This document shows, one piece after another, positions 1 through 56,534 of a stretch of 64,000 nt of DNA. Positions within the stretch are counted from its first letter, which is position 1; each line of letters starts with the position of its first letter. The notes under the pieces are model-generated. The model ran no database searches. It was given only the letters and a program-made list of their open reading frames with translations, and had not been told where the DNA came from. The position numbers and the translations under genes are program-made. The stretch comes from a virus: IMG/VR virus record IMGVR_UViG_3300043178_000087. The stretch is one strand, 5' to 3'.

Positions 1-549
1 AAGACGGTCAACATCGGTATCCGGGCAACTGCACAATGTGCAGTCAGGATCCTGCTGAACGACGACGTGTATTTCCAGACGGACGCCTGCTCCAAACTTG
101 TGGGGGCGTTCGCCGACCCGAACGTCTGGGTGGCCGGAGTACGGCTGTTGTACCCTGACGGCCGTGTCCAACATGGCGGAGCGCACCACGACTTTCGGCA
201 CTGCCACGTTGGCAAATGCGCCGACGACCCCGCGGTTGCGGTGGACCGGGACATCTTCGCTGTGACCGGGGCGCTCATGGGTCTGTCCAACGAGCTGCTC
301 TCCAAGATTGGCGGCCTGGACGAATCGTTTGGCCTTGCGTGGGAAGACTCTGATCTGTGCATGCAGGCGCATCGGTTTGGAAAACGCGTCCGCTATATTG
401 GATCTACGTGGGCGTACCACGAGGAAAGCGGGACGCGCCGAGGCGGCAACGTCGATTGGAATCGGTGGGAATCCGACGGGGCAAGTCATTTCCAAAAGAA
501 GTGGGGCCCCAAAGACGATTGGCCCAAGGTGAAGCTTAGAACGCTGTGA
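1..549 (+). CDS. GT2-family glycosyltransferase (5'-partial)
   Basis: Frame is open from base 1. Motifs NIGIRA..ILLNDD, AVTGALMG, GGLDESFGLAWEDSDLC are typical of GT2. Confidence 0.85.
   Translation, partial: KTVNIGIRATAQCAVRILLNDDVYFQTDACSKLVGAFADPNVWVAGVRLLYPDGRVQHGGAHHDFRHCHVGKCADDPAVAVDRDIFAVTGALMGLSNELLSKIGGLDESFGLAWEDSDLCMQAHRFGKRVRYIGSTWAYHEESGTRRGGNVDWNRWESDGASHFQKKWGPKDDWPKVKLRTL
28..44. promoter_or_regulatory. Palindrome copy 1 ACTGCA-CAATG-TGCAGT
   Basis: One of six copies of the same 17-bp dyad; lies inside the GT2 ORF. Confidence 0.55.
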
Positions 550-558
550 GGTTGAGTC

Positions 559-1191
559 GTGGAGAATGTGCTCCCCGTACTGACTGAAGAGCTTCTCCGG
601 GCTGCCCCGCCTGACCCAACCCCTGATCTTCGGGGGATGATCTCGGCGAGGGTCAAGGTTCTGCTTAATCGCTTGGTAGCCCAGCTACCGGCCGATGAGG
701 CTTATTTGGAGATCGGTTGCTGGCAAGGTGCCAGCGCACTGTCGGCACTCAGGGGAAATCTTGGTGCGACCGCCTACGTCTGCGACAAGTTCTCCGAGTT
801 TACCGACGCCGATCCTAGGGCGAAGTTCTTCGCCAACAAGAAGAGGTACGAGGGCGTCGTTCCTGACTTCACCTTTTTCGATATGGTCAGCTTCGAGCTT
901 TGCAAATTGGAGCGTCCGTTCGCGAAGCCTATTGGGGTATATCTCTACGACGGCGATCACTCCGAACAAAGTCAAGCGCGGGCGCTTATCGAGTACCGGA
1001 AGTTTCTGGCTAAGCAGGTTGTTTTCATAGTGGACGATTGGAATTGGGAGCGGGTCCGTGCCGGGACGTGGAAAGCCATCGACGCCGTCCGCCCCAAAGA
1101 CATTTGGTTCCGAGAGCTTCCCTCAGACGGAAACAAAGACCAGCAGAATTTTTGGAATGGCGTCGGGGCATTTTACCTCGTGCTGGAGTAG
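559..1191 (+). CDS. Class I SAM-dependent methyltransferase (Methyltransf_24-like)
   Basis: YLEIGCWQGAS (motif I), YLYDGDHS, FIVDDWNW. Confidence 0.85.
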   Translation: MENVLPVLTEELLRAAPPDPTPDLRGMISARVKVLLNRLVAQLPADEAYLEIGCWQGASALSALRGNLGATAYVCDKFSEFTDADPRAKFFANKKRYEGVVPDFTFFDMVSFELCKLERPFAKPIGVYLYDGDHSEQSQARALIEYRKFLAKQVVFIVDDWNWERVRAGTWKAIDAVRPKDIWFRELPSDGNKDQQNFWNGVGAFYLVLE

Positions 1192-1193
1192 TT

Positions 1194-1937
1194 GTGCGAG
1201 TAGCTGCTAGAACGCACGGGCGAGCCGGGAACGACATGTTCCGATATGCGTTTCTTCGGCTGTTTGCGGAGCGTCGTCAGCTTCTTTGGAGCTTCTCGGA
1301 TCTTCGCGGTCATCTTCGGGCGCTGTTCCCAGATCTTTCCATGGGAACTACGTCAGCGCCGGAGACGGCACCGTGGTATTTGGTGGAAGACACCGCCAAC
1401 GTGGATGCGCTACTTGAGTCCGGCAAATGGGCTTGGGTGGGCTATTTCCAAGATGCTGCTGCCTTTGAGACCATCTACGAAGGTAGAGACTGCATTTTGG
1501 GCTGGTACACTCAGTCCGCCGAAGCGCGGGAGAAGGCCAAGGTATTTTGGGCAGAGCGCAAAGGGGTTTGCTGTGTCAATGTTCGCGGCGGTGATTTTCT
1601 ACCTCGCGGTGTCGGCATAGGGCCGGAATGGTACGCACGGGCATTTGATTTTGCCCGCAGCAGGCTTGGAAGCAGCGTGGCTTTTCAAGCTGTAACCGAC
1701 GACCCGGCTTATGCTCGCAAGGTTCTTGGGCCGGACGTGCCGATCTACCACGAATCTCCAGCGTACGATTTCGCGCTCCTTACCGAGGCCCCGGCCATAA
1801 TCCAGAGCAACTCGACGTTCTGCTGGTGGGCATCCTTCCTGAACAGCACCCGTCTTGTGGTGACGCCGACTGGGAAGGGAAAGATGTGGCACACGTTCTC
1901 ACGAGCGGCAGGAAGAATGGGCTGGAGCTTGTTGTGA
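1194..1937 (+). CDS. GT11 alpha-1,2-fucosyltransferase-like protein
   Basis: GRAGNDMFRYA, GYFQD, NVRGGDF, AVTDDP, IQSNSTFCWWASFL. GTG start inferred just after the upstream stop. Confidence 0.85.
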   Translation: MRVAARTHGRAGNDMFRYAFLRLFAERRQLLWSFSDLRGHLRALFPDLSMGTTSAPETAPWYLVEDTANVDALLESGKWAWVGYFQDAAAFETIYEGRDCILGWYTQSAEAREKAKVFWAERKGVCCVNVRGGDFLPRGVGIGPEWYARAFDFARSRLGSSVAFQAVTDDPAYARKVLGPDVPIYHESPAYDFALLTEAPAIIQSNSTFCWWASFLNSTRLVVTPTGKGKMWHTFSRAAGRMGWSLL

Positions 1938-2668
1938 AGATCTCCTTCTGCACCACCTGCATGGGCCGCGCCCATCACCTGAAGGAAACGCTGCCGAAGA
2001 ACTTGGTGGATAACGCCGATTGCCCAGATTTGGAATACGTAGTACTGGACTACAACTCCACAGATGGCCTCGAAGCTTGGATGCGCCACTTCCTTGCGTC
2101 TAGCCCCCACGCCGACCGCGTGTCATATTACCGAGAGCGGACAGCCAAGTTCTTTGATCCGCGCCATGCCAAGAACGCCGCGCATCTTCTTGCTGCCGGT
2201 AGCGTGGTGGTAAACATCGACGCCGACAACTTCACCGGCCCGGGATATGCCAGCGAATTGAAAAAAATCTTCAGCGCTCCTGATAGAATTATCGTGACGA
2301 GCAAGACTGGAATCCGAAGTATGTGCGGTAAAATTGCTCTTCGCAAGGAAGACTTCGTGTCCCTTCGCGGATACGACGAGCTGTTTCGTGGGTTTGGTTG
2401 GGAGGATCCCGATCTGGTTAATCGAGCTGTTGCTACCGGTTTTAAGGAGGTTAAGATTAAGTGGAGCGGAGAGGCCGTTATCGACCACTGCAACGAGGAG
2501 AGGGTCAAAAATCTTGAGGACAAGACTCCCACGGGATCGTCGCCTGCGTTCAACCGTCGAAGAGCGCAGGCTCGGGTTCCTGGCAGCCTCTTGAACCCCA
2601 GAGGTTTTGGTATGCTGACAGTCTATTGCGGTCTGTCTACCTCTGTTTGCCACGTTGGAATTGCTTGA
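1934..2668 (+). CDS. GT2 glycosyltransferase with GT7C-like C-terminus
   Basis: ISFCTTCMGR, VVLDYNSTD, VNIDADNF, GYDELFRGFGWEDPDL. Confidence 0.85.
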   Translation: MKISFCTTCMGRAHHLKETLPKNLVDNADCPDLEYVVLDYNSTDGLEAWMRHFLASSPHADRVSYYRERTAKFFDPRHAKNAAHLLAAGSVVVNIDADNFTGPGYASELKKIFSAPDRIIVTSKTGIRSMCGKIALRKEDFVSLRGYDELFRGFGWEDPDLVNRAVATGFKEVKIKWSGEAVIDHCNEERVKNLEDKTPTGSSPAFNRRRAQARVPGSLLNPRGFGMLTVYCGLSTSVCHVGIA

Positions 2669-4038
2669 TGACTTATACAGTCGTCGATCTCGGGTCGAAA
2701 AAGTGCGGCGCTATAGACGTTTTCAGGAAGCGCCACAAGGGAACTTTTGGCGGCTTTGCTGATCTTTCCCCTGAAAAGTGCGTGGCGGTGGACCGGAACG
2801 AATCGTGCCGAGAGGAGGCCGTTCGTCGCGGCTACACGTTCATGAAAGCTGACGTCATGGACCCGGCGTTCGAGTGGCCGCGTGCCGGGTATTACCTGGC
2901 GTGGGACTTTCTTGAGCATCTGCCGTCCTTGGACGATTCGGATCGGATCTTGCGACGCATGGTGGAGCGCTCGACCCACGGAGTCTGGCTGCGCATGCCG
3001 TCCTTTGAGGCCGATGCCATAAGAAAGCTTGACGATCTGGGCCTCAGATACTCATGGACCACGTGGGCAGGACACCGGTCGCCCTACACCGTCGACCGGG
3101 CCGCGTCGGTGATAGAGGCGGTTCCCGGCTGGCGGATAATCAAAAGGTGTGCGGTTACTACGATTGCTGCCACGACGGACGAACACATCGTTCCCAAGAG
3201 TGCGTCGTTTGAATCCGTCCGTTATGATGCGTCGATGGGGCCGAAGCCGGAGGTGACCTTCAAGCCGCCTTTACCCGCTGTTACGGACGTAGTTGGGGTC
3301 CTGACCCGGGCTGCGATCCCCATTGAGCGCTGGGAAACTACGTATTCCAAGCTTATCGCGCTGCTGACGGTCGGGACGCCTTTTTCGTTCAACAGGTTCG
3401 GCGACGGGGAGTGGCGCGCTCTTCTGGCGTTTGACTGCGAATGGTCAGGTCGCTTCGCGAAGAATAAGCGGGTTTCTTGCGGGCTACACGGGACAGACGC
3501 GAATATGGCTGCTGCGTTGAAAACCGTGATTCTGGACAGGCAGGCGTCTGTATTGGGCCTGCAGCCGCTGACCGCTCGGGTTATGGGCGACGCGGTGAGC
3601 GAGTGGCTGACCAGACACAACAGAAATGAGAAGTCGTGGGCGAACTCCGACGCGCTGCACTACGCCAGCATGACCGGGCGCTTGGGCGAGTTCGTCAGCC
3701 TTGCCAAGCCTCGGAAACCGGTGCTGGTAGGCCCGGCGCATCTCTCCGCGATCAAAACAGCGCTGGGAGTTCTTGAGCACGTCGTAATTCCGGATTCGGA
3801 CTGCTGGCAGGTACTTTCGGATATTGAGGCCCGGACGGACGCCGCCATCGCCAATGTTGTGGACGGGGGCATCGTTTTCATTTCCGCAGGGCCTGCTGCC
3901 AAGGTTTTGATTCACCGGCTGGTAGCCAAGCACGGCTCTCGCTGCTCGTTCGTCGACACCGGAGCTGTCTGGGACGTCTACGTGGGCAAGAGCACGCGAC
4001 GCTACCATTCAAAGGTGAACGTGGGGCAGCTCGCTTGA
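2668..4038 (+). CDS. Methyltransferase-like domain fused to GT-D-fold (DUF1792-like) glycosyltransferase
   Basis: N-terminus VVDLGS..VAVD..KADV..WDFLEHL. C-terminus FSFNRFGDGEW..FISAGPAAKVL..FVDTGAVWD. Confidence 0.7.
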   Translation: MTYTVVDLGSKKCGAIDVFRKRHKGTFGGFADLSPEKCVAVDRNESCREEAVRRGYTFMKADVMDPAFEWPRAGYYLAWDFLEHLPSLDDSDRILRRMVERSTHGVWLRMPSFEADAIRKLDDLGLRYSWTTWAGHRSPYTVDRAASVIEAVPGWRIIKRCAVTTIAATTDEHIVPKSASFESVRYDASMGPKPEVTFKPPLPAVTDVVGVLTRAAIPIERWETTYSKLIALLTVGTPFSFNRFGDGEWRALLAFDCEWSGRFAKNKRVSCGLHGTDANMAAALKTVILDRQASVLGLQPLTARVMGDAVSEWLTRHNRNEKSWANSDALHYASMTGRLGEFVSLAKPRKPVLVGPAHLSAIKTALGVLEHVVIPDSDCWQVLSDIEARTDAAIANVVDGGIVFISAGPAAKVLIHRLVAKHGSRCSFVDTGAVWDVYVGKSTRRYHSKVNVGQLA

Positions 4039-6410
4039 TCTACTACAGCATCCCGTGGGACAGCTCGATGAACATCGGGCAGTACTACAATCGCTTCATG
4101 GAAGCGCTCCCGGCGGACAGCGACGTGGCCTGCTTCTTGGACGGAGATGCGTGTTTCACGACCACGTATTACGGCAGGCAGCTAGAGGCCATCCTGGGCA
4201 GATACCCGGAAAGTGGCTTGTTTGCGGGCATGACGAATCGTGTCGGGTGCCGCTGGCAGACGGTCGCCGAAGCTGACAAGAAATCCAACGACATCGAATA
4301 CCATCGAGAACTCGGGGCGCGAATCGCGGCGCGGTCGTGGGACTCGTGCGTACCTGTCCAGTACTCCCCGACCGAGCTGATGAGCGGCGTACTGTTCATG
4401 CTCCGAAAGGCTACGTGGAAACAGGCGGGCGGATTCCCTGAAAAGGGGATGCTGGGGGTGGATAACGAGATACACCGCCGGGTTGCGGAGCTTGGCCTCC
4501 CCGTGATGCTCATGAGCGGGGTGTACGTCTACCACTGGTATAGGGGTGGAAAGCCGGATGCGAACAAGCACCTTAAAATGGCCCGGCAGGCGGTCTACAC
4601 GGTGATCACGCGGGGGTACGACACGCTGAAAGAGCCTACCGTGGTTACGCCGGGTTGGGACTACGTGTGCTTTACCGACGACCCAACCCTCACCTCTCGT
4701 GTGTGGGAAATTCGTCGCTTTCCGACGGAGGCAGATCCGGTCCGAGCTGCGCGTCGCAGGAAGATCCTGCCGCAGGAATTCATGCCGGAATACGATCTGA
4801 CGGTGTGGGTTGATGGTCATCTTGGCATTGCGTGCGACCTGTCGGAACTGGTCAAACGGTTTCATAAGGATACCTTGCTGACTGTGATGTCCCACCCTGA
4901 CCGAGAGTGCGTCTACGACGAAGCCGATGCCTGCAAAGAACAGAAGAAGGATGACCCGGCCGTCATCGACCGGCAAATCGCGTCCATCAGAGCTGCCGGA
5001 TACCCGGCGAAAAATGGGATGGTGGCGACTGGCATGCTGATCCGCGACAATCGCAATCCAGACCTACGCAAAATGGCATTTGAGTGGTGGAACATGGTGG
5101 CGGAAGGAAGCCGCCGAGATCAGCTCAGCTTCAACTACGTTGCGTGGAAGGCGTCGATCCGGTTTGGAATGGCCCCGTGGTCGGAGATCATCGGGACATG
5201 GTTGACGAAATCTAAGCATAAGGCGGTTCGAGGACCGGTCGCCTCCGCCACGGTCGCGCCCGCGCCTGTCGTGAAACCGGTAAGCGCTGCGGCTTTCGGG
5301 CCCGCGATAACGTACGAGGCAGCTCAGAAGCAGGCACGTCTCAAGCGCCGCGGTACATCTTGCGTAGATCGGATGGTCTGGGCAAATAGTAATTTCAACT
5401 ATGGATCTTCCTTGTCTCACGTCAGCCGGGAGAGCGTCCGGTGGCTGGCCCAAGCCGGTGTGCCAATCAGTGCGTGGGCTTGGGATGGGGCCGGAAAGCT
5501 GCCCGTGCAGCTGCCGGTCTTCTCGAAAGCGCATCTGAAGACGTCGGCCGTGATCGTGATGGACCGGATCCCCATGCCGATGAGCGTGTGGGACAAAATG
5601 AAATTTCAGGCTCCGTTCATCGCGGCCTATTACATGTGCGAAGGGACGCGGGTCAAAGACGCGGACATAATCCGGCTTGAGAGGTACGACGCCGTCTTCG
5701 TCCCCACCCAGTTCTGTTACCGGGCCTTGATCGAATCCGGCCTGAAAACCCCGGTGTTCGTCTGGGGACACGGCTTCGACCACAAAGTGTTCCCGTACGT
5801 GGAGCCTGAGCCTAACCGGCCGTTCACGTACCTGTGGTATGGAGACGAGAACCGACGGAAAGGTTACGACCTGTTCTTGAAGGCGTTCTGCGAACTCAAG
5901 GTTCCGAACGTCCGGGCGTGGGTCCGGAGCCCTGGTTCTGGCTTCTTGTCCAAGCTTTCGGACTTCTACCGGCACCGGAAGGACATCGTGTTCGACACCC
6001 GTGTCACGCCGCCGGAACAGCTCAAGGAGCTGATGAAGGAAGCAGACGTGGTGGTCGGCCCGCACCGTGGGGAAGGCTTCGGCCTGTGCGTCATGGAGGC
6101 CATGGCCTGCGGCCGCCCTGCCATCATGACCCGCTGGTCCGGCCCGCTGGATTACGGCGGCGGGGATGACATCACCTACTGGGTGGACACCGACGGATAC
6201 GAGCCTGCCCAGTTCGACGTCGGGGTGCAGGCACGGCCGGACTTCAAGAAGCTTGTGCAGCTGATGTCCAAGGCCGCCCTGGAGCCCGAAGAGGTCCGCC
6301 GCCGTGGTATACTCGCCAGCAAACACATCCACGAGAATTGGAGATGGGAGCAGAAGGTGATGGACGTCTTGCCGGTCCTTCGCCAGTTGATCCCCGGCTG
6401 TAAGCTGTGA
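4035..6410 (+). CDS. Three-domain glycosyltransferase: GT-A + DUF616 (TOD1/MUCI70-like) + GT4
   Basis: CFLDGDAC. AVYTVITRGYD..VCFTD..RKILP..WVDG..RDQLSFNY. RKGYDLF..RGEGFGLCVMEAMACG. Confidence 0.8.
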   Translation: MIYYSIPWDSSMNIGQYYNRFMEALPADSDVACFLDGDACFTTTYYGRQLEAILGRYPESGLFAGMTNRVGCRWQTVAEADKKSNDIEYHRELGARIAARSWDSCVPVQYSPTELMSGVLFMLRKATWKQAGGFPEKGMLGVDNEIHRRVAELGLPVMLMSGVYVYHWYRGGKPDANKHLKMARQAVYTVITRGYDTLKEPTVVTPGWDYVCFTDDPTLTSRVWEIRRFPTEADPVRAARRRKILPQEFMPEYDLTVWVDGHLGIACDLSELVKRFHKDTLLTVMSHPDRECVYDEADACKEQKKDDPAVIDRQIASIRAAGYPAKNGMVATGMLIRDNRNPDLRKMAFEWWNMVAEGSRRDQLSFNYVAWKASIRFGMAPWSEIIGTWLTKSKHKAVRGPVASATVAPAPVVKPVSAAAFGPAITYEAAQKQARLKRRGTSCVDRMVWANSNFNYGSSLSHVSRESVRWLAQAGVPISAWAWDGAGKLPVQLPVFSKAHLKTSAVIVMDRIPMPMSVWDKMKFQAPFIAAYYMCEGTRVKDADIIRLERYDAVFVPTQFCYRALIESGLKTPVFVWGHGFDHKVFPYVEPEPNRPFTYLWYGDENRRKGYDLFLKAFCELKVPNVRAWVRSPGSGFLSKLSDFYRHRKDIVFDTRVTPPEQLKELMKEADVVVGPHRGEGFGLCVMEAMACGRPAIMTRWSGPLDYGGGDDITYWVDTDGYEPAQFDVGVQARPDFKKLVQLMSKAALEPEEVRRRGILASKHIHENWRWEQKVMDVLPVLRQLIPGCKL

Positions 6411-6754
6411 CGATCATCAACGGAACCTTGATGGGGGATCCTTGCGAGGCTCCCTTCATCTCCCTTCAGGGCATCCTCGTCCAGCTCGACGCGTTCATCA
6501 AACGTGGGGACTGCGGATTGGTGGATGCTCCGGACGTCCTGACAGCGCAAGCATGGAAGGGCATCGTGCAGGTGCTCATCCTCGAAGGCCCGGAGTACCC
6601 GCAGTTCAAGAAGGAGCCGTTCATCAACCGGGTGACGGACGTCTTTAAGTCCATCCAGACCCCGGAACTCCAGAGGATCGCCTCCCAGCTTCAGGTATAC
6701 CTGTATCGGCACGGGTTGGTATACGGGCAGATGCCGAGGGCGATGCGGACATGA
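6407..6754 (+). CDS. Hypothetical protein
   Basis: Overlaps both neighbours by 4 nt; phage-like codon usage. Confidence 0.6.
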   Translation: MTIINGTLMGDPCEAPFISLQGILVQLDAFIKRGDCGLVDAPDVLTAQAWKGIVQVLILEGPEYPQFKKEPFINRVTDVFKSIQTPELQRIASQLQVYLYRHGLVYGQMPRAMRT

Positions 6755-7320
6755 CTGACGTTCTGGCCGTTGATCTTGACGACACGGTTGTCGATGCCAC
6801 GGATCGGGTGGCCGCCGCCCTCCGGGACATCGGCGTGGAGCCGGGTTCCGACCCGTCGGCCACGGTGGACTCCCTGCCGGGGAAGCAGAAATCGGCCTTC
6901 TTCCAGATCTTCCAGTCCGAGAAGTACACGGACCTCGACAAGCCCAACATCGGGGCCATCGCCAAGATCCGGGAGGTGGCCAAGGAGACGGGTCTTCCGG
7001 CGGTCATCGTAACCGGGCGGCTGGACTCCATGATGAACTCCGTCAACAAGGCCGCCGGGATGCTGGGAATCCCGGTCAAGGACGTGATCGTCCGCAAGGA
7101 GTCCGAGCGAAAGCGCAAGACCTCCGAGTACAAGGTTTCGGAGATGAAGGCGCGTGGATACCGGCCGGTCCACGTGTTCGACGACGACGAAGGCAATCTG
7201 GCGGCTTTTGCCGCCGAGTGGCCGGACATCAAGCTTCATCATGTGAAGGGTGGAACTGTCTCGGAGATGCGCCGCCTTGAGGTTCTTCTTGGTGAACTCC
7301 GGACGTGGGTTCTGGCTTGA
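6751..7320 (+). CDS. HAD-superfamily phosphatase
   Basis: AVDLDDTV (DxD), IVTGR, conserved K, VFDDD. Confidence 0.8.
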   Translation: MTDVLAVDLDDTVVDATDRVAAALRDIGVEPGSDPSATVDSLPGKQKSAFFQIFQSEKYTDLDKPNIGAIAKIREVAKETGLPAVIVTGRLDSMMNSVNKAAGMLGIPVKDVIVRKESERKRKTSEYKVSEMKARGYRPVHVFDDDEGNLAAFAAEWPDIKLHHVKGGTVSEMRRLEVLLGELRTWVLA

Positions 7321-7370
7321 TCCTTCGCGTCACCACGGCTATACTTAGCTGAACCGGAGGGAGGCGAAGT

Positions 7371-7823
7371 TTGGGAACTCGGATCAGGGCGTTCCAGATC
7401 GACCCGTCCGTATTCTCCCTTGTCACCGTCACCTTCCAGCAGGAAGCCGGATCCAACCTCGACACCGGACGGGTCGTCCGGTACACCGGCGACGGCATCG
7501 TGGATCTGGCCGACAATACCAACCAAACAAACGCCGGAGTAGTCGGCATCACGGCGGCGGCCATCCCCATCTCGACGCAAGGCCCCATCCAGTTTTCCGG
7601 GCTCATGGATGTCGAGATGGAGCTGGGTCTTACGTTGCTGTTCGGCGATATCTTGTATGTCGGGTCCTCCGGCATGGGGACCAATATCCAGACGTTGACC
7701 TCTGGTGAGGCCAACTGCAGGATCGGGCGGGTGTCCGACAGCTCGGCGTACAATCCCGGCGGCCCGTCTCCGCAGTACGTCAAGGTTGCGGTTAATATCG
7801 ACTATCCGATTGTGAATCCGTAG
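7371..7823 (+). CDS. Putative virion structural protein (DUF2190-like beta fold)
   Basis: VVGITAA..GDILYVGSSG..IGRV resembles the C-terminus of the next ORF. GGAGG RBS. Confidence 0.5.
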   Translation: MGTRIRAFQIDPSVFSLVTVTFQQEAGSNLDTGRVVRYTGDGIVDLADNTNQTNAGVVGITAAAIPISTQGPIQFSGLMDVEMELGLTLLFGDILYVGSSGMGTNIQTLTSGEANCRIGRVSDSSAYNPGGPSPQYVKVAVNIDYPIVNP

Positions 7824-7840
7824 ACTGCACAGTGTGCAGT
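7824..7840. promoter_or_regulatory. Palindrome copy 2 ACTGCA-CAGTG-TGCAGT
   Basis: Intergenic, immediately after a stop codon and 32 nt before the fibre-like gene. Confidence 0.65.
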
Positions 7841-7872
7841 TGGTCTTGAGGTAGGAAAGAGGAGGAAGCACC

Positions 7873-10125
7873 GTGGCGAATCGTACGCCGATTTTCCTGA
7901 ATACGGGTGGCTCGCTTGCCGGGGTCAGCTCGACGGCTGACAACCTGCTGGCGGCGGGCGTCCAGTCGGGCACTGCGACCGATTTGTCGCTGAGCCGGAC
8001 GGGCGCGGCCGGTACGACCGTCACGGTGGGAGCTGCGGCAGTCACCCTGGGCTCGTCTTTGGCATCCCTCGACGTGGGCGCTTCGACGTTCAACCTTGCG
8101 AACACCACGGCTACGACGCTGAACATCGGCGGCGCAGCCACGGCCATTAACATGGGCGTGACGAACGGCACGACGACGATCACCGGCAACGTGACCATTT
8201 CCCAGAACCTGACAGTAAACGGTACGACGACCACGACCCACTCCGAGCAGGTGCTGATCGACGACAACCACCTGTACCTGAACAACGCGTACAACACGGT
8301 GGTTGCCCAGACCGGCGGCCTGGTGGTGAACTACCTGCCCACGTCCACCAATGACACGGTTGCAGCGGGCGGATTCGCGACTACTTCCACTGTCGCAACG
8401 ACCGGCGCGACAACGTTCAGCCCCGGCGATATCATTCAGGTCAGCGGAGCCACGAACCCCTCCAACGACGGCATCTACGAGGTCTTGACCCACGCGTCCA
8501 ACGTCTTGACCATCAACACCTCTCCGACCGAAGACTTCCTGCAGAACGTGTTCGTGGTCAGTGTCGGCGCGGTCGGTACGATCCGCAAGGTGAACGTCTC
8601 CGTCATGCGGGCGGGCACGGACGGTCTCTGGGAGGTGGCTGCGGGTTCGACCACCCCGCTCACGTTCGCGGATCTGGCTACTGGCACGTCTTCCGGCTGG
8701 ACGGATGACGGCACTGTGGTGCGGCTGACGACGGCTTCGGACAACGTCGGCATCGGCACGGCCACGCCGGGTGCTAACAAGGTCAACATCACCAACGACA
8801 CGGTCGGCGACAGGAACCTGTTGCTGGTCGAGGCGGCCTCTCAGACGGCGGCCCCCTTCCGCATCGAGACGTCGGCGTCGGCTCTTGAGTTCCAGGTTGC
8901 TGTCGGCGGTGATACCACCGTGGCTGGTGACCTTGCGGTCAACGGTGGTGATCTGACGACGACCAGCGCTACTGCGACGCTCTTCAATACGGGTGCGACA
9001 ACGTCGCTTGCCATCGGCGGGGCTTCTCCTGCCATTACCATGGGCACGAGCGGCGGCACCGTGACGGTGGCCGGTGACCTTGCGGTCAATGGGACCGCGT
9101 CGGCCGACATTACGACCACCACGGCCACGGCGTCGGTGTTCAACACGACCGCCACAACGCTGAACGTCGGCGGGGCCGCGACCACGGCCAACCTCGTTAC
9201 GGCCGGTACGACGGTCGCTCTGGGCGGATCCAGCGGCACCCTCACCATCGGCAACCCGACGATCACCGGCACGAACGCCACGACGTTCAACATGAACGGG
9301 GCCAGCCCGTCCATTGTGACGTCTTCGACCGGCACCGCCAGCGTGTTCAACACCAACGCCACCACGTTGAACCTCGGCGGCGCAGCCACCACGATCAACG
9401 CAGGTGCCGCCGCCTCCACCTTCGCGACCGGGTTCAACGCGGTCACCAGCTCTCAGGCTACGGTGGCCCTGTTCAACGCCACAACCACCACGCTGAACCT
9501 CGGCGGTGCGGCGTCCATCAACATGGGCAGCTCCGGCGGCACGACGACCGTAGCGGGCGACCTGACGGTGAATGGTGCCCTCACGCTGGGCGATTCGGCG
9601 AGCGACGATATCGCGGTGAATGCCGAATTCACCACGAGTTTGGTGCCCAACACCGACAACGCTGTTAACCTCGGCAGCTCTTCTAAGCGGTGGGCGAACC
9701 TGTTCGTCACCAATCTGGACTCTCTGTCGGTAGGCACGACGTACGTGGCCGAGACAGGCGTCGGCGTGTCGGCCAACCGGGTTGTGTACAAGATCGCCGC
9801 GGCCAACGAAGTTGCGCACGCGAACGCGACGGCGCTAAGCTCCTGCAACGCCACTGTGGGCGTCACCCGAGCGGCGGCAACTAGCGGTGCGGACGTCACG
9901 GTGGACTACGCTGGTGTGGTTACTATGGACGCCGCGACGGGCATCACGATCTCGTCCGGTGACATTGTGTACCTGGCCGCTGGCACGACCGGCGAGGTCA
10001 CCAACGTGGCTCCCACCGCTTCCGGATCCGTGGTTCTGGTGGTGGGTATCGCCAAGACCACGTCCTCTTCGGGTGGTACGTTCCTCGCCCAGTTCCAGCC
10101 CCGCACGCCCTACGTGAATCCGTAA
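7873..10125 (+). CDS. Thr-rich repetitive fibre-like virion protein
   Basis: Many TTATTLNxGGAA / VAGDLxVNG beta-repeats and a DUF2190-like C-terminus. Confidence 0.65.
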   Translation: MANRTPIFLNTGGSLAGVSSTADNLLAAGVQSGTATDLSLSRTGAAGTTVTVGAAAVTLGSSLASLDVGASTFNLANTTATTLNIGGAATAINMGVTNGTTTITGNVTISQNLTVNGTTTTTHSEQVLIDDNHLYLNNAYNTVVAQTGGLVVNYLPTSTNDTVAAGGFATTSTVATTGATTFSPGDIIQVSGATNPSNDGIYEVLTHASNVLTINTSPTEDFLQNVFVVSVGAVGTIRKVNVSVMRAGTDGLWEVAAGSTTPLTFADLATGTSSGWTDDGTVVRLTTASDNVGIGTATPGANKVNITNDTVGDRNLLLVEAASQTAAPFRIETSASALEFQVAVGGDTTVAGDLAVNGGDLTTTSATATLFNTGATTSLAIGGASPAITMGTSGGTVTVAGDLAVNGTASADITTTTATASVFNTTATTLNVGGAATTANLVTAGTTVALGGSSGTLTIGNPTITGTNATTFNMNGASPSIVTSSTGTASVFNTNATTLNLGGAATTINAGAAASTFATGFNAVTSSQATVALFNATTTTLNLGGAASINMGSSGGTTTVAGDLTVNGALTLGDSASDDIAVNAEFTTSLVPNTDNAVNLGSSSKRWANLFVTNLDSLSVGTTYVAETGVGVSANRVVYKIAAANEVAHANATALSSCNATVGVTRAAATSGADVTVDYAGVVTMDAATGITISSGDIVYLAAGTTGEVTNVAPTASGSVVLVVGIAKTTSSSGGTFLAQFQPRTPYVNP

Positions 10126-46752: not shown

Positions 46753-46761
46753 CTCGCCAAG

Positions 46762-46789: not shown

Positions 46790-46807
46790 AAAGTAGGAGG
46801 ATTGACC

Positions 46808-48280: not shown

Positions 48281-48285
48281 ACGGC

Positions 48286-48392: not shown

Positions 48393-48648
48393 TGACAGTA
48401 GCCCCGGTACAGGTGTTTGGACCACTTGTAACGGGGCCGGTAACAAGGCAGCGGTCGGAGAGGCCCCGGTGTTTGACGCCCGGCGTTGTACTGTCTTCGC
48501 ATCTCAACCCCTTGTAGAGGGTGTTGGGCGTGCTGTGGGATGGTCGGTACCGAAAAGTTTTGGCTGGCTCAGGCCGGTCAGACGCCTCTTCGCTGCCTTC
48601 CGACCTGCCACGTCCAACACGTCCGACGCTCTCTACAAGGGGTTTTTT
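48393..48648 (+). ncRNA. Candidate structured ncRNA/leader (~250 nt) upstream of the replication module
   Basis: Stems GACAGTA/TACTGTC and AACCCCTTGTAGAG/CTCTACAAGGGGTT, followed by a T-tract. Confidence 0.55.
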
Positions 48649-48659
48649 ATTTCCCCTCA

Positions 48660-48676
48660 ACTGCACACTATGCAGT
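48660..48676. promoter_or_regulatory. Palindrome copy 5 ACTGCA-CACTA-TGCAGT
   Basis: Between the T-tract and the RBS of the first replication-module gene. Confidence 0.65.
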
Positions 48677-48689
48677 CGGAGGGTGTCCG

Positions 48690-49121
48690 GTGAGCCAAGA
48701 CAGGCTGGTTGAGACCTACAAGGAGTGGGTTGAGGTCGCAGGAGGAAAGCAGGAGTTCGACCGCCAGTTCTACAATTTCGACTTCCCCGGCCTTCAGCCT
48801 TGGTACAAGACCGTCTTCAAGGGCATCGTCTACTACCTCACCGAGGACGAGCTTTCTTCCGCCAAGCAATTCGCCGAAGAATGCTGCATTTCCATGGCGC
48901 AGCTCGACCAAGCGGTGGAGTTCTGGAAAGAGCTGGGTGTCTGGAGCTGGGTAGACAATCCTGACGGCATCCGCGAGTTCTTCTTCCTGAAGTCTCCTCT
49001 AGATGTCCGGGTCCAGCTCATCGTCCAGATCGACGGCAAAACCACAGTCAACACCACCGATGTTTCCGAGATCGAAAACCTTACGAAGAATGGGAGGGGG
49101 ACCGTTCGTGGCGAAAACTAG
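48690..49121 (+). CDS. Hypothetical, possible winged-HTH protein
   Basis: GGAGG RBS. AEECCIS..QL..AV.FWKELGV resembles the HTH of the next gene. Confidence 0.55.
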   Translation: MSQDRLVETYKEWVEVAGGKQEFDRQFYNFDFPGLQPWYKTVFKGIVYYLTEDELSSAKQFAEECCISMAQLDQAVEFWKELGVWSWVDNPDGIREFFFLKSPLDVRVQLIVQIDGKTTVNTTDVSEIENLTKNGRGTVRGEN

Positions 49122-51219: not shown

Positions 51220-53850
51220 ATGAATCTCGACGGCATCATCGTCAAAAAACTGGTCAAACAGGGCGGTCTCGCTGAGGCGACCAAGCTTGGGCTGACCCCG
51301 GCCATGCTGTTCAGCGAGGGCCGCGACGGTCTCGCTTTCGTGACCGAGCATTTCACCAAATACGGGACTCTTCCCGACTGGGACACGCTGGTGGACGAGA
51401 TCCCGGCCATGAACGACGTGGACGACAACGGGATCAGCGAACCGCTGGAATACCTTGTGGACAAGGTACTTTGGCGGTTTCGCGGCAACCTGATTCAGGA
51501 CGGAATGGCGAAGGCCACCAACTTCCTGTCTTCGTCCAAGCCCGACGAGGCCATGAAGGTCCTGGGCGAAGCCGTAAGCAGAGCACAGGAGGCCGTCCGG
51601 GATGCGAAGGCGTCCACCGTCATCATGACCGAGAAGGCGGACATCGACGAGGCGTGGGCGGACTACCAGCACCGCAAGGCTCTGGGCGGACAGCCTGACG
51701 GGCTTCCGACGCCGTGGCCTGCCATCACGAACGCCACGATGGGCATCCATCCCGGCGAGCTGTGGTTCATCGTCGCCCGCCTGAAGACTGGCAAGTGCAT
51801 CGACGGAGATACGCTCATTCCTGACCCGGTGACTGGCGAATGGCGGACCATCAAGCAGGTGTACGAAACCCGCGCTGAACGCGGACGCGTGCTGACCTTG
51901 AACAACAAGGCGAGCATCGAGGCTACCACTCCTACCGAGTACTGGGACAGCGGAATCAAGGAATGCGTGGAGGTTGTTACCAGATCCGGTTTTCGGCTGA
52001 CCGCACCGCCTAACGATCCTCTGTTTACTCCCGATGGGTGGGTGAAGTTGGAAGACCTCAAGCCCGGAGTGCAGTTGGCTGTTGCGGCGCGTGTGCCGGA
52101 ACCTGAGTGTCCCGAGCCGATGCCTGATTGGGAAGTGGACCTTCTGGCGGGAATGATCGCCGAAGGCGGAACCACCGGCAGACAGGCAACGTTCACCAAT
52201 CTTGATCCGGCTATCGTTTCACGCATCAAGACGGCGGTCGCTTCCGTGGACTGCCAGCTGAAGCAGTATCGTGGAGCGAATCCTTGTGAGTGGGTCATCA
52301 CCACTACGCAAAAGCTGGCGCACCTCCAGAAGACGGGCATTCGACTGTTGATGGAGAAGCACGGTTTGTGGGGTGTTCGTAGTACCGATAAGAGCATCCC
52401 CAACGCGGTGTTCAAGCTGCCGAATTCACAACTCGCCCGGTTTCTCGGGATGCTCTGGTCTTGCGACGGGAGCGTACACGCCAGATGCGGAACGTTGACG
52501 TATGGCGTCGTATCGAAGCGGTGCGTCGAGCAGGTTAGGCAACTCCTGCTCCGGTTTGGAATCTCGTGCGTTCTCCGTGAAAAAAGCAGCAGGCTTTCCG
52601 ACGGGCGTCCGTACGTGTCGTGGGAGCTGACGGTCAAAGGTGAAAGCAAAGATGCTTTTGTTGCGAACATCTCGTTGGTTGGAGCGAAGGCCGAGCGTAT
52701 CAAGGGAGCTGTTCCTGACCGTCGTCATCCCGTGTACGACTATGTGACCGCCTCTTCTCAGACGCGGGCTTGGATCAACGATACCGTGGCGCGGTCTGGA
52801 AAAACGTGGGCTGATTTCTGGGCGTGGTGCGGCTGGTCGTCCAATAAGGACGGCCGAAAGTCCAGCGGTGTTCGTGGGCTGATAAATCCCGCTACGCAGC
52901 ACATCCCGAGGACCCGGCTTCGGAAGTTCGTGGAGTTCTTCAAGCCTGAAGGTCGTGAAGAGCTGACGAGCCCTGATATTTGGTGGGACGAGATCGCATC
53001 CATCAAGCCGGTCGGCAGGCGGCATGTTTACGATTTGACCATTGACGGTTCTCACAACTTCGTTGCTGCCGGGGTTATTGCGCACAATACGTGGGCCTTG
53101 TCGCTGTTCGCCCGCGAGACGTGGGAAGTGGCGAAGAAGCCGCTCCTGTTCGTCACGATGGAGATGCAGCCCAAGCGCATCCGCCGTCGTCTGCACGCGC
53201 TGTGCGGACGCTTCCCGTGGGGCGACTTCCTCAAGGCCAAGCTGAACCCGGAGGTGGAGAAGAAGTACCGGGACTTCCTTGACAGCCTGAACGGGATGCC
53301 GAAGCTTGTCGTTGTGGGGTCGGATCGCGTCTCCAAGCCCCGTGACGTGGAGATGCTGATCGAGCAGGAGAAGCCGGGGCTGGTCATCATCGACGGCGTG
53401 TACTTCATGTCCGGCAAGGGTGACGCCGGATGGGAGCGGCTCAACGATGCGGTGACCGGCATCCAGCGTATGGCCATCAAGAAGAACGTTCCCATCCTCG
53501 CGTCCAGCCAGTTCAACAAGGGCGTCGGCAAGGACACCGACGAGGCGCAGGCGTCCGACATCGGTTACGCCTACGGCATCGCACAGGCCGCCGACGTCCT
53601 CATGGGCATCTACCGCACGCCCGAGCTGGAAGAAGTCAACCGCATGAAGATCGAGCTGATGGAAACCCGAGACACGCCCAAGGCGGCCATCCTCGCCAAC
53701 TGGAACCTGACCACGATGGACTTCACGCAGGCCGAGGTGTTGTCGGACGGCAACGATGGCCTTCCCATGGGAGGCCCGGCGGCCGTGGATGCCATGTCGG
53801 CGTCCGTCGGCACCGAGCCCGAATCGGAGAATGGAGGAGTGGAATACTAG
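51220..53850 (+). CDS. dnaB: DnaB-like replicative helicase with intein
   Basis: ARLKTGK|T, FVTMEM, VIIDGVY, SQFNK, DIGYA..QAADV. Confidence 0.9.
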   Translation: MNLDGIIVKKLVKQGGLAEATKLGLTPAMLFSEGRDGLAFVTEHFTKYGTLPDWDTLVDEIPAMNDVDDNGISEPLEYLVDKVLWRFRGNLIQDGMAKATNFLSSSKPDEAMKVLGEAVSRAQEAVRDAKASTVIMTEKADIDEAWADYQHRKALGGQPDGLPTPWPAITNATMGIHPGELWFIVARLKTGKCIDGDTLIPDPVTGEWRTIKQVYETRAERGRVLTLNNKASIEATTPTEYWDSGIKECVEVVTRSGFRLTAPPNDPLFTPDGWVKLEDLKPGVQLAVAARVPEPECPEPMPDWEVDLLAGMIAEGGTTGRQATFTNLDPAIVSRIKTAVASVDCQLKQYRGANPCEWVITTTQKLAHLQKTGIRLLMEKHGLWGVRSTDKSIPNAVFKLPNSQLARFLGMLWSCDGSVHARCGTLTYGVVSKRCVEQVRQLLLRFGISCVLREKSSRLSDGRPYVSWELTVKGESKDAFVANISLVGAKAERIKGAVPDRRHPVYDYVTASSQTRAWINDTVARSGKTWADFWAWCGWSSNKDGRKSSGVRGLINPATQHIPRTRLRKFVEFFKPEGREELTSPDIWWDEIASIKPVGRRHVYDLTIDGSHNFVAAGVIAHNTWALSLFARETWEVAKKPLLFVTMEMQPKRIRRRLHALCGRFPWGDFLKAKLNPEVEKKYRDFLDSLNGMPKLVVVGSDRVSKPRDVEMLIEQEKPGLVIIDGVYFMSGKGDAGWERLNDAVTGIQRMAIKKNVPILASSQFNKGVGKDTDEAQASDIGYAYGIAQAADVLMGIYRTPELEEVNRMKIELMETRDTPKAAILANWNLTTMDFTQAEVLSDGNDGLPMGGPAAVDAMSASVGTEPESENGGVEY
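51796..53088 (+). mobile_element. LAGLIDADG intein in the DnaB Walker A (431 aa)
   Basis: CIDGDT...VYDLTIDGSHNFVAAGVIAHN|T; LAGMIAEG and LGMLWSCDG. Confidence 0.92.
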
Positions 53851-54042
53851 TGGGATACGAGAGCGTGAGCAACAACGCGGACGAACTCCGTCGCATCGAA
53901 CAGATGCTCAACCGTCGGATCGACGAGAAGGAGAAGTCCATGGTCATCCTGATCGAGCAGCGTGACCGCGTGCGGGCCAAGCTTGCGAGCATGGGCGTCA
54001 ATCTCGAACCGCAGTCGTGCTAACATGACGGCGGAGGTGAGT

Positions 54043-54396
54043 ATGGGCAACTGGACGATTCGGCGGGAGTGGCTGGTTCCTCGTGAGTGGCCGTTCCGCC
54101 AGCCGCTCGGGCAGCCGGTGCTTCAGGACGCGCCGTGCGGTCCAGTGCATCCCGATCCGTCCCAGCTTCCTCCGCTCATGATCCATCCGCTGCCCGACCG
54201 TTTCGAGCTGTCGGAGACGGAGCTGGCGCGGATCATGGAGGCGTACGCGGATCTTCCGGCCGACGACAAGACCGTGGATCTGCTCTTCAACACGATGCGG
54301 AACAACGGCTTCGGCGTGGTGGAGATCAAGGTTGTGGACGGCGGGTACAAGATCGAACTGACCAACGGCTGGGTCTACTGGGTGAATGCCGCATGA
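54043..54396 (+). CDS. Hypothetical protein
   Basis: GGAGGT RBS; coupled to the primase gene. Confidence 0.6.
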   Translation: MGNWTIRREWLVPREWPFRQPLGQPVLQDAPCGPVHPDPSQLPPLMIHPLPDRFELSETELARIMEAYADLPADDKTVDLLFNTMRNNGFGVVEIKVVDGGYKIELTNGWVYWVNAA

Positions 54397-56534
54397 ATCT
54401 TGAGCGGGTGCAGGAAGTCCTGTCGGAGCTGGGCTGCGACAAGGTTCGTCCGTACAAGGAGGACACCAAGGTCGGCTCCTCCTGCCCGCTGGCACCGTGG
54501 ACGCACAAGAACGGCATCGACCGGCATCCCAGCTTCAAGGTGTCCGTCAACCCGGAAGGGATCAGCTTCGCCGACTGCTACGCCTGCGGTCACACGTCCA
54601 CGCTGGTCCGTCTGCTGGAGAAGGTCAATCAGCTCAAGGGTGGCGGCCTCGACGAGCTGCTGACCCGCGTGCGCAAAGAGGAAGAGTTCGATCTGGGGAC
54701 AAAGCTCGACGGCCTGAAGTGGATGTACGACTGGCAGGACCCTCGACGCCAGAAGAAGCTGGAGGCCGCCAAGCAGAAGTCCGCCTACCCGGTGTACGAG
54801 GACGCCCGGCTGGCGGAGTTCGCCGGACAGGTCCCGCGCTACCTGCTGGATCGCGGCGTGACCATCGAGGTCTGCCGCAAGTTCAAGCTTGGGTGGGATC
54901 CGAAGGAACGGCGGGCCATCTTCCCCGTCTGGGACGACAAAGGCAAGCTGGTCGGCATTCAGGGCCGGGCCATCGACGCCGACGCCGATCCGCGCTGGCG
55001 GAACTACTGGAACTTCCCCAAGTCCAAGTTTGTGTACGGACTGCATAGTGTGCAGTCGGGCCGTCCCATCATCGTGATGGAAGGCGTGATCGACGCGCTG
55101 GTGTGGCTGGGCTACGGCATCCCCAACTGTGTACTGCCCGGATCGTTGGTTTCGACGTCCTTCGGGGCCGTGCCGATTGAGAACGTGCAGGCGGGGATGC
55201 GCGTGGCATCTCACGACGGCAAATTGGGTCGCGTGACGTCGGTCAGCTCTCGGAGTCACGCCGGACCGGCTACCGAGCTTTGGTTTCGCAAGAATGCGCT
55301 GCCGTTGCGCACTACTGGCGATCATCGAGTGCTGCTGGTTCGCGCAGAAGATCTTCCCAAGGGAAAGGAGAAAGGGTGGGAGTTTGTCGACGAGGGAAAA
55401 ATCCGCTGGACCCCTGCTGGTGACGTCCGCCCTGGTGACGCCCTACTGTTCCCAAAATTCTCGGAGGAGACGGACACGCGTCAGCTGGACGTCCAACCGG
55501 GAGTTGCTGTCAACGGCTGCTTTGAATCTTACGGACCGTCTTGGTCGGTGCCGGTAACCGACAATTTGTTGCGGCTGGCTGGCTATTACTTGGCTGAAGG
55601 GTGCCCGACTCACGGTGGAATTCAGTTCGCATTCCACAAGGAGGAAGAACAGTACCAAGCTGAAGTGCTAAAGCTTGTGGGAAACGTGTTTGAGGTTGGC
55701 GGGAAGGTGGAACAGGTCTCTGAAAATGGTGTTCGGGTAGTTTTTGATTCGGCCGATCTCCGCACGTTTTTCTTGCAGTTCGGGAGGAAAGCTACGGCGA
55801 AGAGGGTGCCTGAGTGGATGCTGACCCTGCCTCGTAGACAAGTCCGCCACGTCGTAGAGACGTATTGGCGTGGCGACGGTTGCAAAGGCAATGGCGTGTT
55901 CAACTTTGGAACGTCGAGTCCGAACCTGATGTCGTCGATGCGTCTGCTGCTGGCCAAGTTGGGCGTCTTTGCGGGTCTGCACAGGACCACGAAAGAGGCC
56001 ATCAACGCTCGTGGGGGAAAGGCGAAGGCCACAGCGGACGCATGGCTGTTGCAGTTGAATGGCGACGCGGCAAGTGCCTTGGCAAGCCAGTTTGGAGAGG
56101 ATTTTGAACCGAAACGGAGGCTGCTGCGAGAGCGCGGAGGCGTCCGACGCCGCTATTTCTACGAATCAGAGCATTTCTTCCTGATGCCTGTTCATAAGGT
56201 AGGCGCGGCGGATTGGCACGGGCCGGTGTACGATCTTGAGGTCGAGGGGGCGCACTCCTTCCTTGTGGATGGGGCGATTGTACACAACTGTGTGTCGGTG
56301 TTCGGATCGAAGCCGACCCAGACCCAGATGGACCTGATCCGGCGCAAGGGCCTGCCTGTGGTGATGGCGTACGACGGCGACGAGGCCGGTGACGGAGCCG
56401 AGCAGGACACCATCGACCACCTGCGCGGGCGCGTGCAGCTCTTCAAGCTTGGCATCCCTCGCGGCTTGGATCCGGACAACCTCACCCGGTCGCAGGCCGT
56501 TGAGCTGCTGGAGAGGAAGAAGCTCGTTTTGTGA
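54393..56534 (+). CDS. dnaG: DNA primase (Zn-binding + TOPRIM) with intein
   Basis: CPL..H..PSF..CYACG; IVMEGVIDA; AYDGDEAG; DPD. Confidence 0.85.
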   Translation: MNLERVQEVLSELGCDKVRPYKEDTKVGSSCPLAPWTHKNGIDRHPSFKVSVNPEGISFADCYACGHTSTLVRLLEKVNQLKGGGLDELLTRVRKEEEFDLGTKLDGLKWMYDWQDPRRQKKLEAAKQKSAYPVYEDARLAEFAGQVPRYLLDRGVTIEVCRKFKLGWDPKERRAIFPVWDDKGKLVGIQGRAIDADADPRWRNYWNFPKSKFVYGLHSVQSGRPIIVMEGVIDALVWLGYGIPNCVLPGSLVSTSFGAVPIENVQAGMRVASHDGKLGRVTSVSSRSHAGPATELWFRKNALPLRTTGDHRVLLVRAEDLPKGKEKGWEFVDEGKIRWTPAGDVRPGDALLFPKFSEETDTRQLDVQPGVAVNGCFESYGPSWSVPVTDNLLRLAGYYLAEGCPTHGGIQFAFHKEEEQYQAEVLKLVGNVFEVGGKVEQVSENGVRVVFDSADLRTFFLQFGRKATAKRVPEWMLTLPRRQVRHVVETYWRGDGCKGNGVFNFGTSSPNLMSSMRLLLAKLGVFAGLHRTTKEAINARGGKAKATADAWLLQLNGDAASALASQFGEDFEPKRRLLRERGGVRRRYFYESEHFFLMPVHKVGAADWHGPVYDLEVEGAHSFLVDGAIVHNCVSVFGSKPTQTQMDLIRRKGLPVVMAYDGDEAGDGAEQDTIDHLRGRVQLFKLGIPRGLDPDNLTRSQAVELLERKKLVL
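55040..55056. promoter_or_regulatory. Palindrome copy 6 ACTGCA-TAGTG-TGCAGT
   Basis: Inside the primase CDS, ~70 nt before the intein. Confidence 0.55.
55128..56288 (+). mobile_element. LAGLIDADG intein in the primase TOPRIM domain (387 aa)
   Basis: CVLPGS...VYDLEVEGAHSFLVDGAIVHN|C; LAGYYLAEG and YWRGDG. Confidence 0.92.

Follow-up and report, generated by a model that had tools for sequence, protein, structure and literature searches.

We describe a family of perfect 19-base-pair (bp) palindromes dispersed over a 64,000-nucleotide (nt) stretch of viral DNA, IMG/VR record IMGVR_UViG_3300043178_000087 (the whole of this stretch is hereafter called the window), and over the genomes of related phages. 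Purifying selection on the palindromes is strong, and their occurrence is specific to the mobile elements of a single host lineage. Our preferred reading, held with middling confidence, is that the palindrome would be the recognition site of a two-fold symmetric, sequence-specific protein serving as one regulator for many operons. When the reading is widened to include a protein that uses the sites as a clamp, it becomes probable.

An all-or-none palindrome dispersed over a phage genome

An earlier note on this DNA, made from the letters alone, had described six copies of a 17-bp palindromic operator with perfect arms. The pattern ACTGCANNNNNTGCAGT indeed gave six exact matches in the window, at positions 28, 7824, 20429, 36682, 48660 and 55040, and the arms with an unconstrained centre (ACTGCA-N5-TGCAGT) gave none in 100 dinucleotide-preserving shuffles of the window. 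In order, the six centres read CAATG, CAGTG, TACTG, CGCTA, CACTA and TAGTG, and the dyad constraint proposed for them was recovered as well, with Y..TR in 6/6 and YANTR in 5/6. Four related motif-bearing contigs were found in IMG/VR (G001 to G004). G001 is 86,862 bp long, carries seven sites and overlaps the left end of the window with its right end at 66-80% identity; G002 (16 kb) is 91-96% identical to the window between 48 and 64 kb, and G003 and G004 closely resemble G001. Two metagenome relatives, L196 and L197, are about 74% identical to the window, and further short contigs were also found.

The window, G001 and G002 together hold 13 distinct sites with perfect 6 + 6 arms and a free central base in about 145 kb of non-redundant sequence, a density of about one site per 11 kb. 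The base to the left of the motif is a purine (R) and the base to its right a pyrimidine (Y) in 13/13 distinct sites, and the unit is therefore a 19-bp palindrome, RACTGCAYA-N-TRTGCAGTY, composed of two 9-bp half-sites RACTGCAYA around the free central base. In an alignment of 80-bp flanks conservation ended at the edges of the palindrome, which is thus not the core of a longer repeat. The family is all-or-none. A fuzzy scan of the window and G001 (87 kb) allowing up to three substitutions returned only the known sites and none with two or three mismatches, with about 0.1 matches in codon-block shuffles, and the seven one-mismatch matches to the shorter core, none of which has a YANTR centre, look like chance.

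Most sites lie between genes (10 of 13, in genomes with about 11% intergenic DNA; P ~5e-8). Those in the window are listed in Table 1 together with the other features of this DNA, and the contexts given in the earlier note were borne out: four copies are intergenic (7824, 20429, 36682 and 48660) and two lie in coding sequence (28 and 55040). Most intergenic sites end 7-13 nt 5' of a start codon with only a Shine-Dalgarno (SD) sequence in between, and several begin at the preceding stop codon or one base into it. We did not read this short spacing as functional, since it is the smallest spacer that accommodates 19 bp and a ribosome-binding site in a packed genome. A seventh site is predicted just past position 64000, on the basis of G002.

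Table 1. Palindromic sites and other features of the window.
Feature	Position	Strand	Description
Site 1	27-45		AACTGCACAATGTGCAGTC; inside family-2 glycosyltransferase gene, read T-A-Q-C-A-V
Site 2	7823-7841		directly after TAG stop of 7371-7823; GTG 7873 follows 32 nt on
Site 3	20428-20446		4 nt past -10 hexamer; then SD; ATG 20458 12 nt on
Site 4	36681-36699		centre CGCTA, sole YANTR exception; ATG 36706 7 nt on
Site 5	48659-48677		13 nt before GTG 48690, first gene of replication module
Site 6	55039-55057		inside DnaG-type primase (G-L-H-S-V-Q-S), 76 nt upstream of intein insertion point
Sigma-70-type promoter	20396-20424	+	TTGAAC-17-TATACT, just upstream of site 3
GC-rich hairpin	36649-36680	+	32 nt, abuts site 4; kept in L206/L207
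RNA rod, then U6	48506-48650	+	terminator-like; immediately upstream of site 5
MerR-type candidate	63505-63990	+	161 amino acids, winged helix-turn-helix at residues ~70-140
Glycosyltransferases and virion proteins	1-20 kb
Small accessory genes, then MoxR/VWA genes			block of small genes
Replication module			DnaB helicase, DnaG primase and SNF2-type helicase (each with intein), family-A polymerase
Intein in DnaB helicase	51794-53086		LAGLIDADG or Hint domains
Intein in DnaG primase	55132-56281		LAGLIDADG or Hint domains
Intein in SNF2/ResIII helicase	59972-61006		LAGLIDADG or Hint domains

Sites are kept by position in diverged relatives

Four loci could be traced by position in relatives with 57-88% protein or 63-74% DNA identity, and at these loci only the degenerate positions of the palindrome change. 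The operator network of the earlier note had carried with it the expectations that the sites be kept in related phages and that a copy in coding sequence be conserved at synonymous positions, and both held. Site 1 is identical to G001 (80548-80566) at 19/19 bases against a flank identity of 0.63 (P ~2e-4), and its third codon positions are identical at 6/6 against 0.42 in the flanks. Site 3 is kept in loci L199-L204, in which the homologues of the 206-amino-acid (aa) protein encoded downstream are 57-88% identical; in L203 its centre is CAGTG for TACTG, with perfect arms. Site 4 occurs at the same place in L206 and L207 as GACTGCATAGTGTGCAGTT, again with perfect arms. Its -1 base and 4/5 of its centre bases differ from the window copy, one of them at the N position, and both relatives have the canonical A at position 8. 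The start codon at 36706 behind this site is real, because only synonymous changes follow the ATG in L206/L207. Site 5 is kept in G002, L196 and L197 with flanks about 68% identical; its centre is CA-N-TA throughout, where N is C, T, G and A across the four genomes.

Site 6 is present in G002 and absent from the intein-less L196, L197 and L209. These read GLHAIQPG where the window lineage reads GLHSVQSG, at a conserved spot just before the Toprim motif, and the right arm was completed by about six base changes, amounting to three amino-acid changes, in an otherwise conserved block. A one-mismatch near-site, with A/T-ending codons throughout, is found in the exonuclease gene of L196, L197 and L209 and is perfect in L210.

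An exact, all-or-none sequence resembles the recognition sequence of an enzyme, and the palindrome might accordingly be considered a target of a nuclease, recombinase or DNA-modifying enzyme (for nicking, as a recombination hot spot or for homing) or a very small selfish repeat. Homing elements abound in the genome (three inteins as well as HNH and LAGLIDADG genes), the primase site is accompanied by an intein at a distance of 76 nt, and similar repeats of Cluster O mycobacteriophages mark insertion-deletion junctions (PMC4351075). However, the distance from the primase site to the point of intein insertion is too great for the site to serve in homing of that intein. None of the mosaic junctions fell at a site in the relatives compared, the flanks lack the conservation expected of a mobile unit, and the strong bias toward intergenic positions 5' of genes points to gene expression. 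We consider an enzyme target or selfish repeat barely credible.

Half-sites vary independently of each other

Every copy can fold into a stem with 6-8 pairs and an energy of -6.5 to -9.8 kcal/mol, and an RNA or single-stranded DNA hairpin could stabilise the 5' end, be a site of processing or act as a translational operator beside the SD. The location of the sites just upstream of SDs in a genome with its genes all on one strand fits such a role, as does the minimum-free-energy fold at 48660, in which the stem extends to pair with the SD. The pattern of variation argues otherwise. Arm bases are invariant in all 13 sites and in the orthologous copies, and since they never change there is no compensatory change either. 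At the outer positions (-1,+1) the pairs are A/T in five sites, A/C in five, G/T in two and G/C in one, and at positions (7,11) they are C/G in four, T/G in six and C/A in three, so that A-C and C-A closing mismatches occur about as often as predicted for an independent choice of R or Y in each half. What would be the loop is itself symmetric, with A8 and T10 fixed and Y7 facing R11. The SD-pairing extension at 48660 is not kept in G002, L196 or L197, and the sites at 12106 and 2292 of G001 lie between convergent genes or upstream of minus-strand genes. Because the half-sites vary independently, mismatches included, a dimer on double-stranded DNA is favoured over an RNA hairpin, which we regard as very unlikely. 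A structured RNA or a hairpin promoter (e.g. of the N4 type) was rejected as an identity of the element on the lack of covariation, the chance-level mismatches, the symmetric centre and an Rfam search in which no family matched the palindrome.

Relation of the sites to promoters

Site 3 spans about -2 to +16 of the start predicted for the promoter listed in Table 1. Five relatives keep the -35 and -10 elements there (TTGCAC or TTGCGT, 17 nt, then TATACT or TACAAT) with a spacer that varies in sequence; the footprint at 20429 is one in which the -35, the -10, the palindrome and the SD are kept and the spacers drift. By analogy, this placement is that of a classical repressor. At two other sites, 2292 of G001 (minus strand) and 9170 of L210, the palindrome touches the -35 of a consensus promoter, and other sites are internal to genes or separate genes within a single operon.

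The motif of these consensus promoters, TTGACAAA-N14-ACATAAT, is a separate and asymmetric one; the window has 17 copies of it and the early region of G001 (504-15018) has 8. The window copies span 28241-63476 (28-48 kb, 56.5 kb and 63.4 kb, e.g. 28241, 33506, 45037 and 63449), and the motif is confined to accessory, early and replication regions, with none in the structural region. In many of these promoters an ATG follows the -10 at a distance of 5-7 nt, implying mRNAs that lack a leader. As the main promoters are a different and asymmetric motif, the palindrome is not simply a general promoter.

In a rival reading, the palindrome would itself be, or would contain, a promoter or start-site element for a phage-directed transcription factor such as the sigma-70-region-2 protein of G001, which would place the start a few bases downstream. 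Such an element would suit the 7-13 nt that separate most sites from a start codon with only an SD between them, the frequency of leaderless or very short-leader mRNAs in this phage family, and the position of sites 48660 and 36682 directly after strong hairpins, where the downstream genes may need a new start. In addition, YANTRT keeps the A and T of a -10, CATAnT resembles the phage -10 CATAAT, G001 encodes the sigma-like protein (19075-21045), and at the locus downstream of recA the window lineage has the palindrome in the place of the relatives' promoter. Promoters are asymmetric, whereas here both arms are perfect and the orientation of C-type and T-type half-sites is independent of the direction of transcription. 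No -35 element is found at a fixed distance from the sites, at least two sites are inside genes, the site at 20429 has a conserved canonical promoter upstream of it, and the sites at 2292 of G001 and 9170 of L210 lie upstream of a complete consensus promoter. We therefore judge a promoter element to be unlikely.

Under our preferred reading, in which a symmetric protein binds the palindrome, each subunit would read one 9-bp half-site on double-stranded DNA. The sites lie at the 5' edges of gene blocks, and several of them take up the minimal spacer that separates a stop codon or a hairpin from the ribosome-binding site that follows; a site over a promoter would act by promoter occlusion, and one elsewhere as a roadblock or gate. 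The heterogeneous placement fits one protein working in several modes, namely occlusion, roadblock and sliding clamp. Of the reading proposed in the earlier note, a dispersed site for a dimeric protein that is unlike those of LexA, CRP or parS, the symmetry without covariation, the positional conservation, the promoter overlap and the near-absence from host genomes have stood; protein binding, the dimer state and repression are the parts that we infer.

Several points weigh against this reading. The same heterogeneity (at +1, at the edge of a -35, after terminators, inside genes) is one of them, and identical sites are unusual for operators, which are normally graded in affinity. At 48660, the nearest recognisable promoter (48253) is separated from the replication genes by two terminator-like structures, so transcription might begin at or within the palindrome there. 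Neither of the two genes proposed below to encode the binder, 63505-63990 and the ParB-like gene of G001, has an adjoining site; the binder is represented by candidates, and the choice among proteins is inferential. Finally, gene calls came from a simple codon-usage scorer of open reading frames (ORFs) applied to the DNA alone.

Candidate binding proteins

The leading candidate in the window for a protein binding the palindrome would be the product of 63505-63990 (Table 1). It matches Pfam MerR/MerR_1 and a PHROG transcriptional regulator family, and its homologues are confined to this phage family. The AlphaFold2 (AF2) model has a mean predicted local distance difference test (pLDDT) score of 84, and all top Foldseek matches of its C-terminal half are winged helix-turn-helix domains of the MerR family whose structures were solved in complex with palindromic DNA (among them CueR, MtaN, NmlR, CarH, RacA and GlnR), with weak E-values of 5e-3 and up. 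Among the helix-turn-helix (HTH) candidates put forward in the earlier note this one alone has solid support as a MerR-type HTH protein; 49108 gave only a sub-threshold HTH_36 match and 48690 no HTH match, and Pfam scans of about 60 window proteins returned no further HTH regulator. The operator layout typical of the MerR family was considered and rejected, as the spacer at 20429 is 17 bp rather than 19-20 and the palindrome lies downstream of the -10. This mismatch is still compatible with a MerR-fold protein acting as a plain repressor.

A second candidate comes from G001, where 17868-18629 encodes a 253-aa ParB-family protein (Pfam ParB_N, 1.5e-15; PDB profiles of Noc 9e-24, ParB 1e-20 and KorB 1e-11). 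In Foldseek its AF2 model (pLDDT 88.7) aligns with ParB, Noc and KorB across about 128 columns, a stretch that takes in the first DNA-binding helices. After about residue 140 the protein departs from ParB and so lacks the full DNA-binding domain. It suggests that the palindromes could be loading sites of a CTP-dependent clamp of the ParB/KorB/Noc type, which would slide and silence distant promoters or organise and segregate the genome. ParB-family proteins bind palindromes of 13-16 bp, and KorB sites are dispersed at variable distances from promoters (PMC11790492), which fits the heterogeneous positions seen here. On the other hand, besides the incomplete domain, the ParB-like gene is known from G001 and not from the window genome, its methyltransferase-like neighbour is a common non-partition context, and no ParA-like gene was found among the adjacent genes scanned. 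An element with 5-8 sites in the metagenome-assembled genome (MAG) G005, described below, has its sole ParB homologue on another contig. We consider a clamp of this type improbable, although it is included in the wider form of our reading given at the outset. In sequence the palindrome is unlike parS, the KorB operator (OB) and the Noc-binding site (NBS), and the nearest site in G001 is 5.7 kb from the parB-like gene. The segregation or genome-organisation alternative raised in the earlier note thus gained a candidate protein in G001 but no site adjoining its gene.

The ParB-like gene belongs to a group of adjoining genes at 17222-21045 of G001 (L208 2223-6046) that encode methyltransferase-like, ParB/Noc/KorB-like and partial sigma-70-region-2 proteins. 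The last of these (19075-21045) is 656-714 aa long and may be an intein-interrupted or expanded phage sigma factor.

The palindrome in host genomes and other mobile elements

The exact motif occurs in 4 of 301 Bryobacterales genomes, in one copy each, and the reversed control in none; allowing up to two mismatches, counts equalled the reversed-pattern control in 4/5 Acidobacteriota genomes. From this near-absence, the palindrome is not a chromosomal regulon box in the presumed host order, and the earlier note's concern that it might match an abundant host regulator box can be set aside. A scan of one genome per prokaryotic species returned scattered single matches, as chance predicts, and two informative Bryobacterales MAGs. 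Single matches in L193-L195 and L212 were treated as chance, with about 500 expected in 596 Gb.

The first of these, G007, holds on contig C8 (L192 3217-5421) a CRISPR array with 30 repeats of 37 nt ending ATTGAAAC, and a 40-nt spacer at 5196-5235 contains the palindrome followed by a hairpin. This array would be a host clue for the phage family. Another spacer of G007 (4442-4484) resembles a head-module gene of G001 at the peptide level, with 26/43 bases identical and similar peptides, which is suggestive only. The second MAG, G005, carries a duplicated inverted element (copies 86-93% identical; L190 4700-10001 on C14 and L191 4000-7200 on C6) with 5-8 palindromes in about 5.5 kb near a Rep_1 rolling-circle replication gene, and it may be a satellite, or resemble a plasmid, and share the site code of the phage. 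In addition, one of the four Bryobacterales genomes with the exact motif, MAG G297, has it on a 4.2-kb contig (L211, region 1774-2335) that encodes a GpA-type terminase; behind the terminase lie two small divergent genes with HTH-like segments. Between these two genes are a perfect site, which ends 8 nt ahead of a small gene, and 33 bp upstream of it a copy that matches at 14/17 positions, a layout that is, by analogy, the classic arrangement of a repressor switch, in an unrelated phage fragment.

No protein detectably in common with the phage was found in the Bryobacterales elements that carry the motif, including by blastp of the G005 ORFs against the phage ORFs. Either the specificity module is too small or diverged, or the elements exploit one another's regulator or a host factor. 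A search of the G005 element for a MerR-like recognition-helix motif found none, and a comparison of the 81-aa HTH-like protein of L211 with the phage MerR-like family by hhalign reached a probability of 17%, which is too weak as evidence.

It could also be imagined that the sites anchor a genome-wide silencing or organising system of a large, virulent-looking myovirus, through a KorB-like clamp or a RacA-like MerR-fold anchor, and that this system is shared with other Bryobacterales elements. Early, replication and structural operons would then be gated from about one site per 11 kb. We hold this to be distinctly unlikely; if true, a site code common to the Rep_1 element, the GpA-terminase phage fragment and the CRISPR-targeted relative would define a cross-element immunity or parasitism group.

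Comparison with known dispersed sites

Dispersed sites are a known kind of phage feature; the lineage and the sequence are new, and nothing comparable has been described in this phage lineage and host phylum. The closest described analogue is the dyad repeat of Cluster O mycobacteriophages, a 17-bp TGTTCGG-N3-CCGAACA with invariant arms and a variable centre that is present in dozens of copies and is read as a putative site of a dimeric regulator (PMC4351075). As here, its copies lie in short intergenic gaps or near the 5' ends of genes, with some inside genes; positions are kept among relatives, and the repeat is absent from hosts. The two differ in sequence, in arms (7-3-7 against 9-1-9 here), in host phylum and in phage type, and the Cluster O repeat occurs at about five times the density (34 per 69 kb, compared with about one per 11 kb here). 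The present palindrome has in addition one clear promoter overlap, and it also turns up in further mobile elements from its host lineage.

Stoperators of Cluster A phages (L5 gp71 type) are asymmetric, 13-14 bp long, orientation-dependent and bound by a monomer, and a roadblock has been proposed for them (PMC9283540, PMC6550527). The likeness would lie in one specificity with many sites in the short intergenic spaces of co-directional operons, to which stoperator networks add an operator at an early promoter; of the present sites, one covers the start of a promoter and others are internal to operons. Membership in a stoperator network was nevertheless rejected, since the palindrome is perfect and half-site variants show no orientation bias. 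The KorB operators of plasmid RK2 are dispersed short palindromes at variable distances from the promoters they affect (PMC11790492). They share with the present sites this dispersed, short palindromic form, and a ParB-family protein is encoded in the close relative G001. They differ in that there is no sequence likeness, the G001 candidate lacks a full DNA-binding domain, and neither a partner ATPase, looked for among the adjacent genes scanned, nor a clamp-locking partner was found. KorB and its operators would still be the best model for palindromes acting at variable distances, with the ParB-family gene, in the relative only, as the link.

Operators of the lambda and TetR types are 17-19 bp long with an odd, unconstrained central base pair (8-1-8 or 9-1-9), and their placement over the -10/+1 region represses. 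Their copies are grouped within one or two control regions and vary in affinity, whereas here single identical sites are spread over at least 145 kb. We know of no fit, by eye, in spacing or logic to sigma-54 promoters, LexA boxes (CTGT-N8-ACAG), the Fibrobacter LexA box (TGCNC-N4-GTGCA), NrdR boxes, or BsgI and TspRI sites.

Phages of Acidobacteriota are almost unstudied, and two regulatory layers, one of about 25 consensus promoters with frequent leaderless starts and the other the network of palindromes, amount to a map of the expression units of a genome of at least 145 kb. Dispersed palindromes of cultured phages, such as those of Cluster O, still await a function, and a second independent example sharpens the question. 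The geometry is clearer here, with a promoter overlap, a site bought by three amino-acid changes and further occurrences in elements from its host lineage. The example yields 19-mers of defined sequence and two proteins as candidates, the motif doubles as a lineage marker, and a CRISPR spacer has given a clue to the host.

The phage genome and its relatives

Every gene of the window is on the plus strand and the GC content is 0.61. A megablast search of 8 kb against INPHARED gave no match, and there is no close cultured relative; the host is probably a soil or freshwater acidobacterium. G001 encodes terminase, portal, major head, sheath, tube and baseplate proteins, and is therefore a myovirus. 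In the window, the gene directly behind site 2 (7873-10125), called a fibre gene in the earlier note, encodes a 750-aa product whose matches are to a virion structural protein and to a cement domain of phages.

The region upstream of site 5 is strongly structured (48495-48700, -104 kcal/mol, z = -7.7), and the short terminator stem with its T-run before the site is also present in L196/L197. The rod at 48495-48652 stands between a small promoter-terminator unit (48253-48358) and the replication operon and could be a regulated leader.

Among the accessory genes we noted a stand-alone response-regulator receiver domain (27711-28169), a ClpS adaptor homologue (46185-46478) and a MoxR ATPase with a VWA/metallopeptidase partner (34033-36374). 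Between the MoxR and VWA genes, the relatives L206 (461-1195) and L207 (1805-2539) carry a free-standing LAGLIDADG_2 gene; in the window an 88-aa ORF after the VWA gene (36374-36640) takes the place of the relatives' LAGLIDADG_2 gene. Homing-endonuclease content varies among close relatives. G002 lacks the first and third inteins, and L196, L197 and L209 lack all three, with clean, in-frame junctions. In G001 the terminase large subunit (22665-27095) is 1476 aa long and the portal (34066-36813) 915 aa with an HNH-like insert, so structural genes have probably also been invaded by inteins or homing endonucleases. Finally, G001 has 35 tRNA genes clustered directly after the major head gene (42418-46809; L062 2418-6809).

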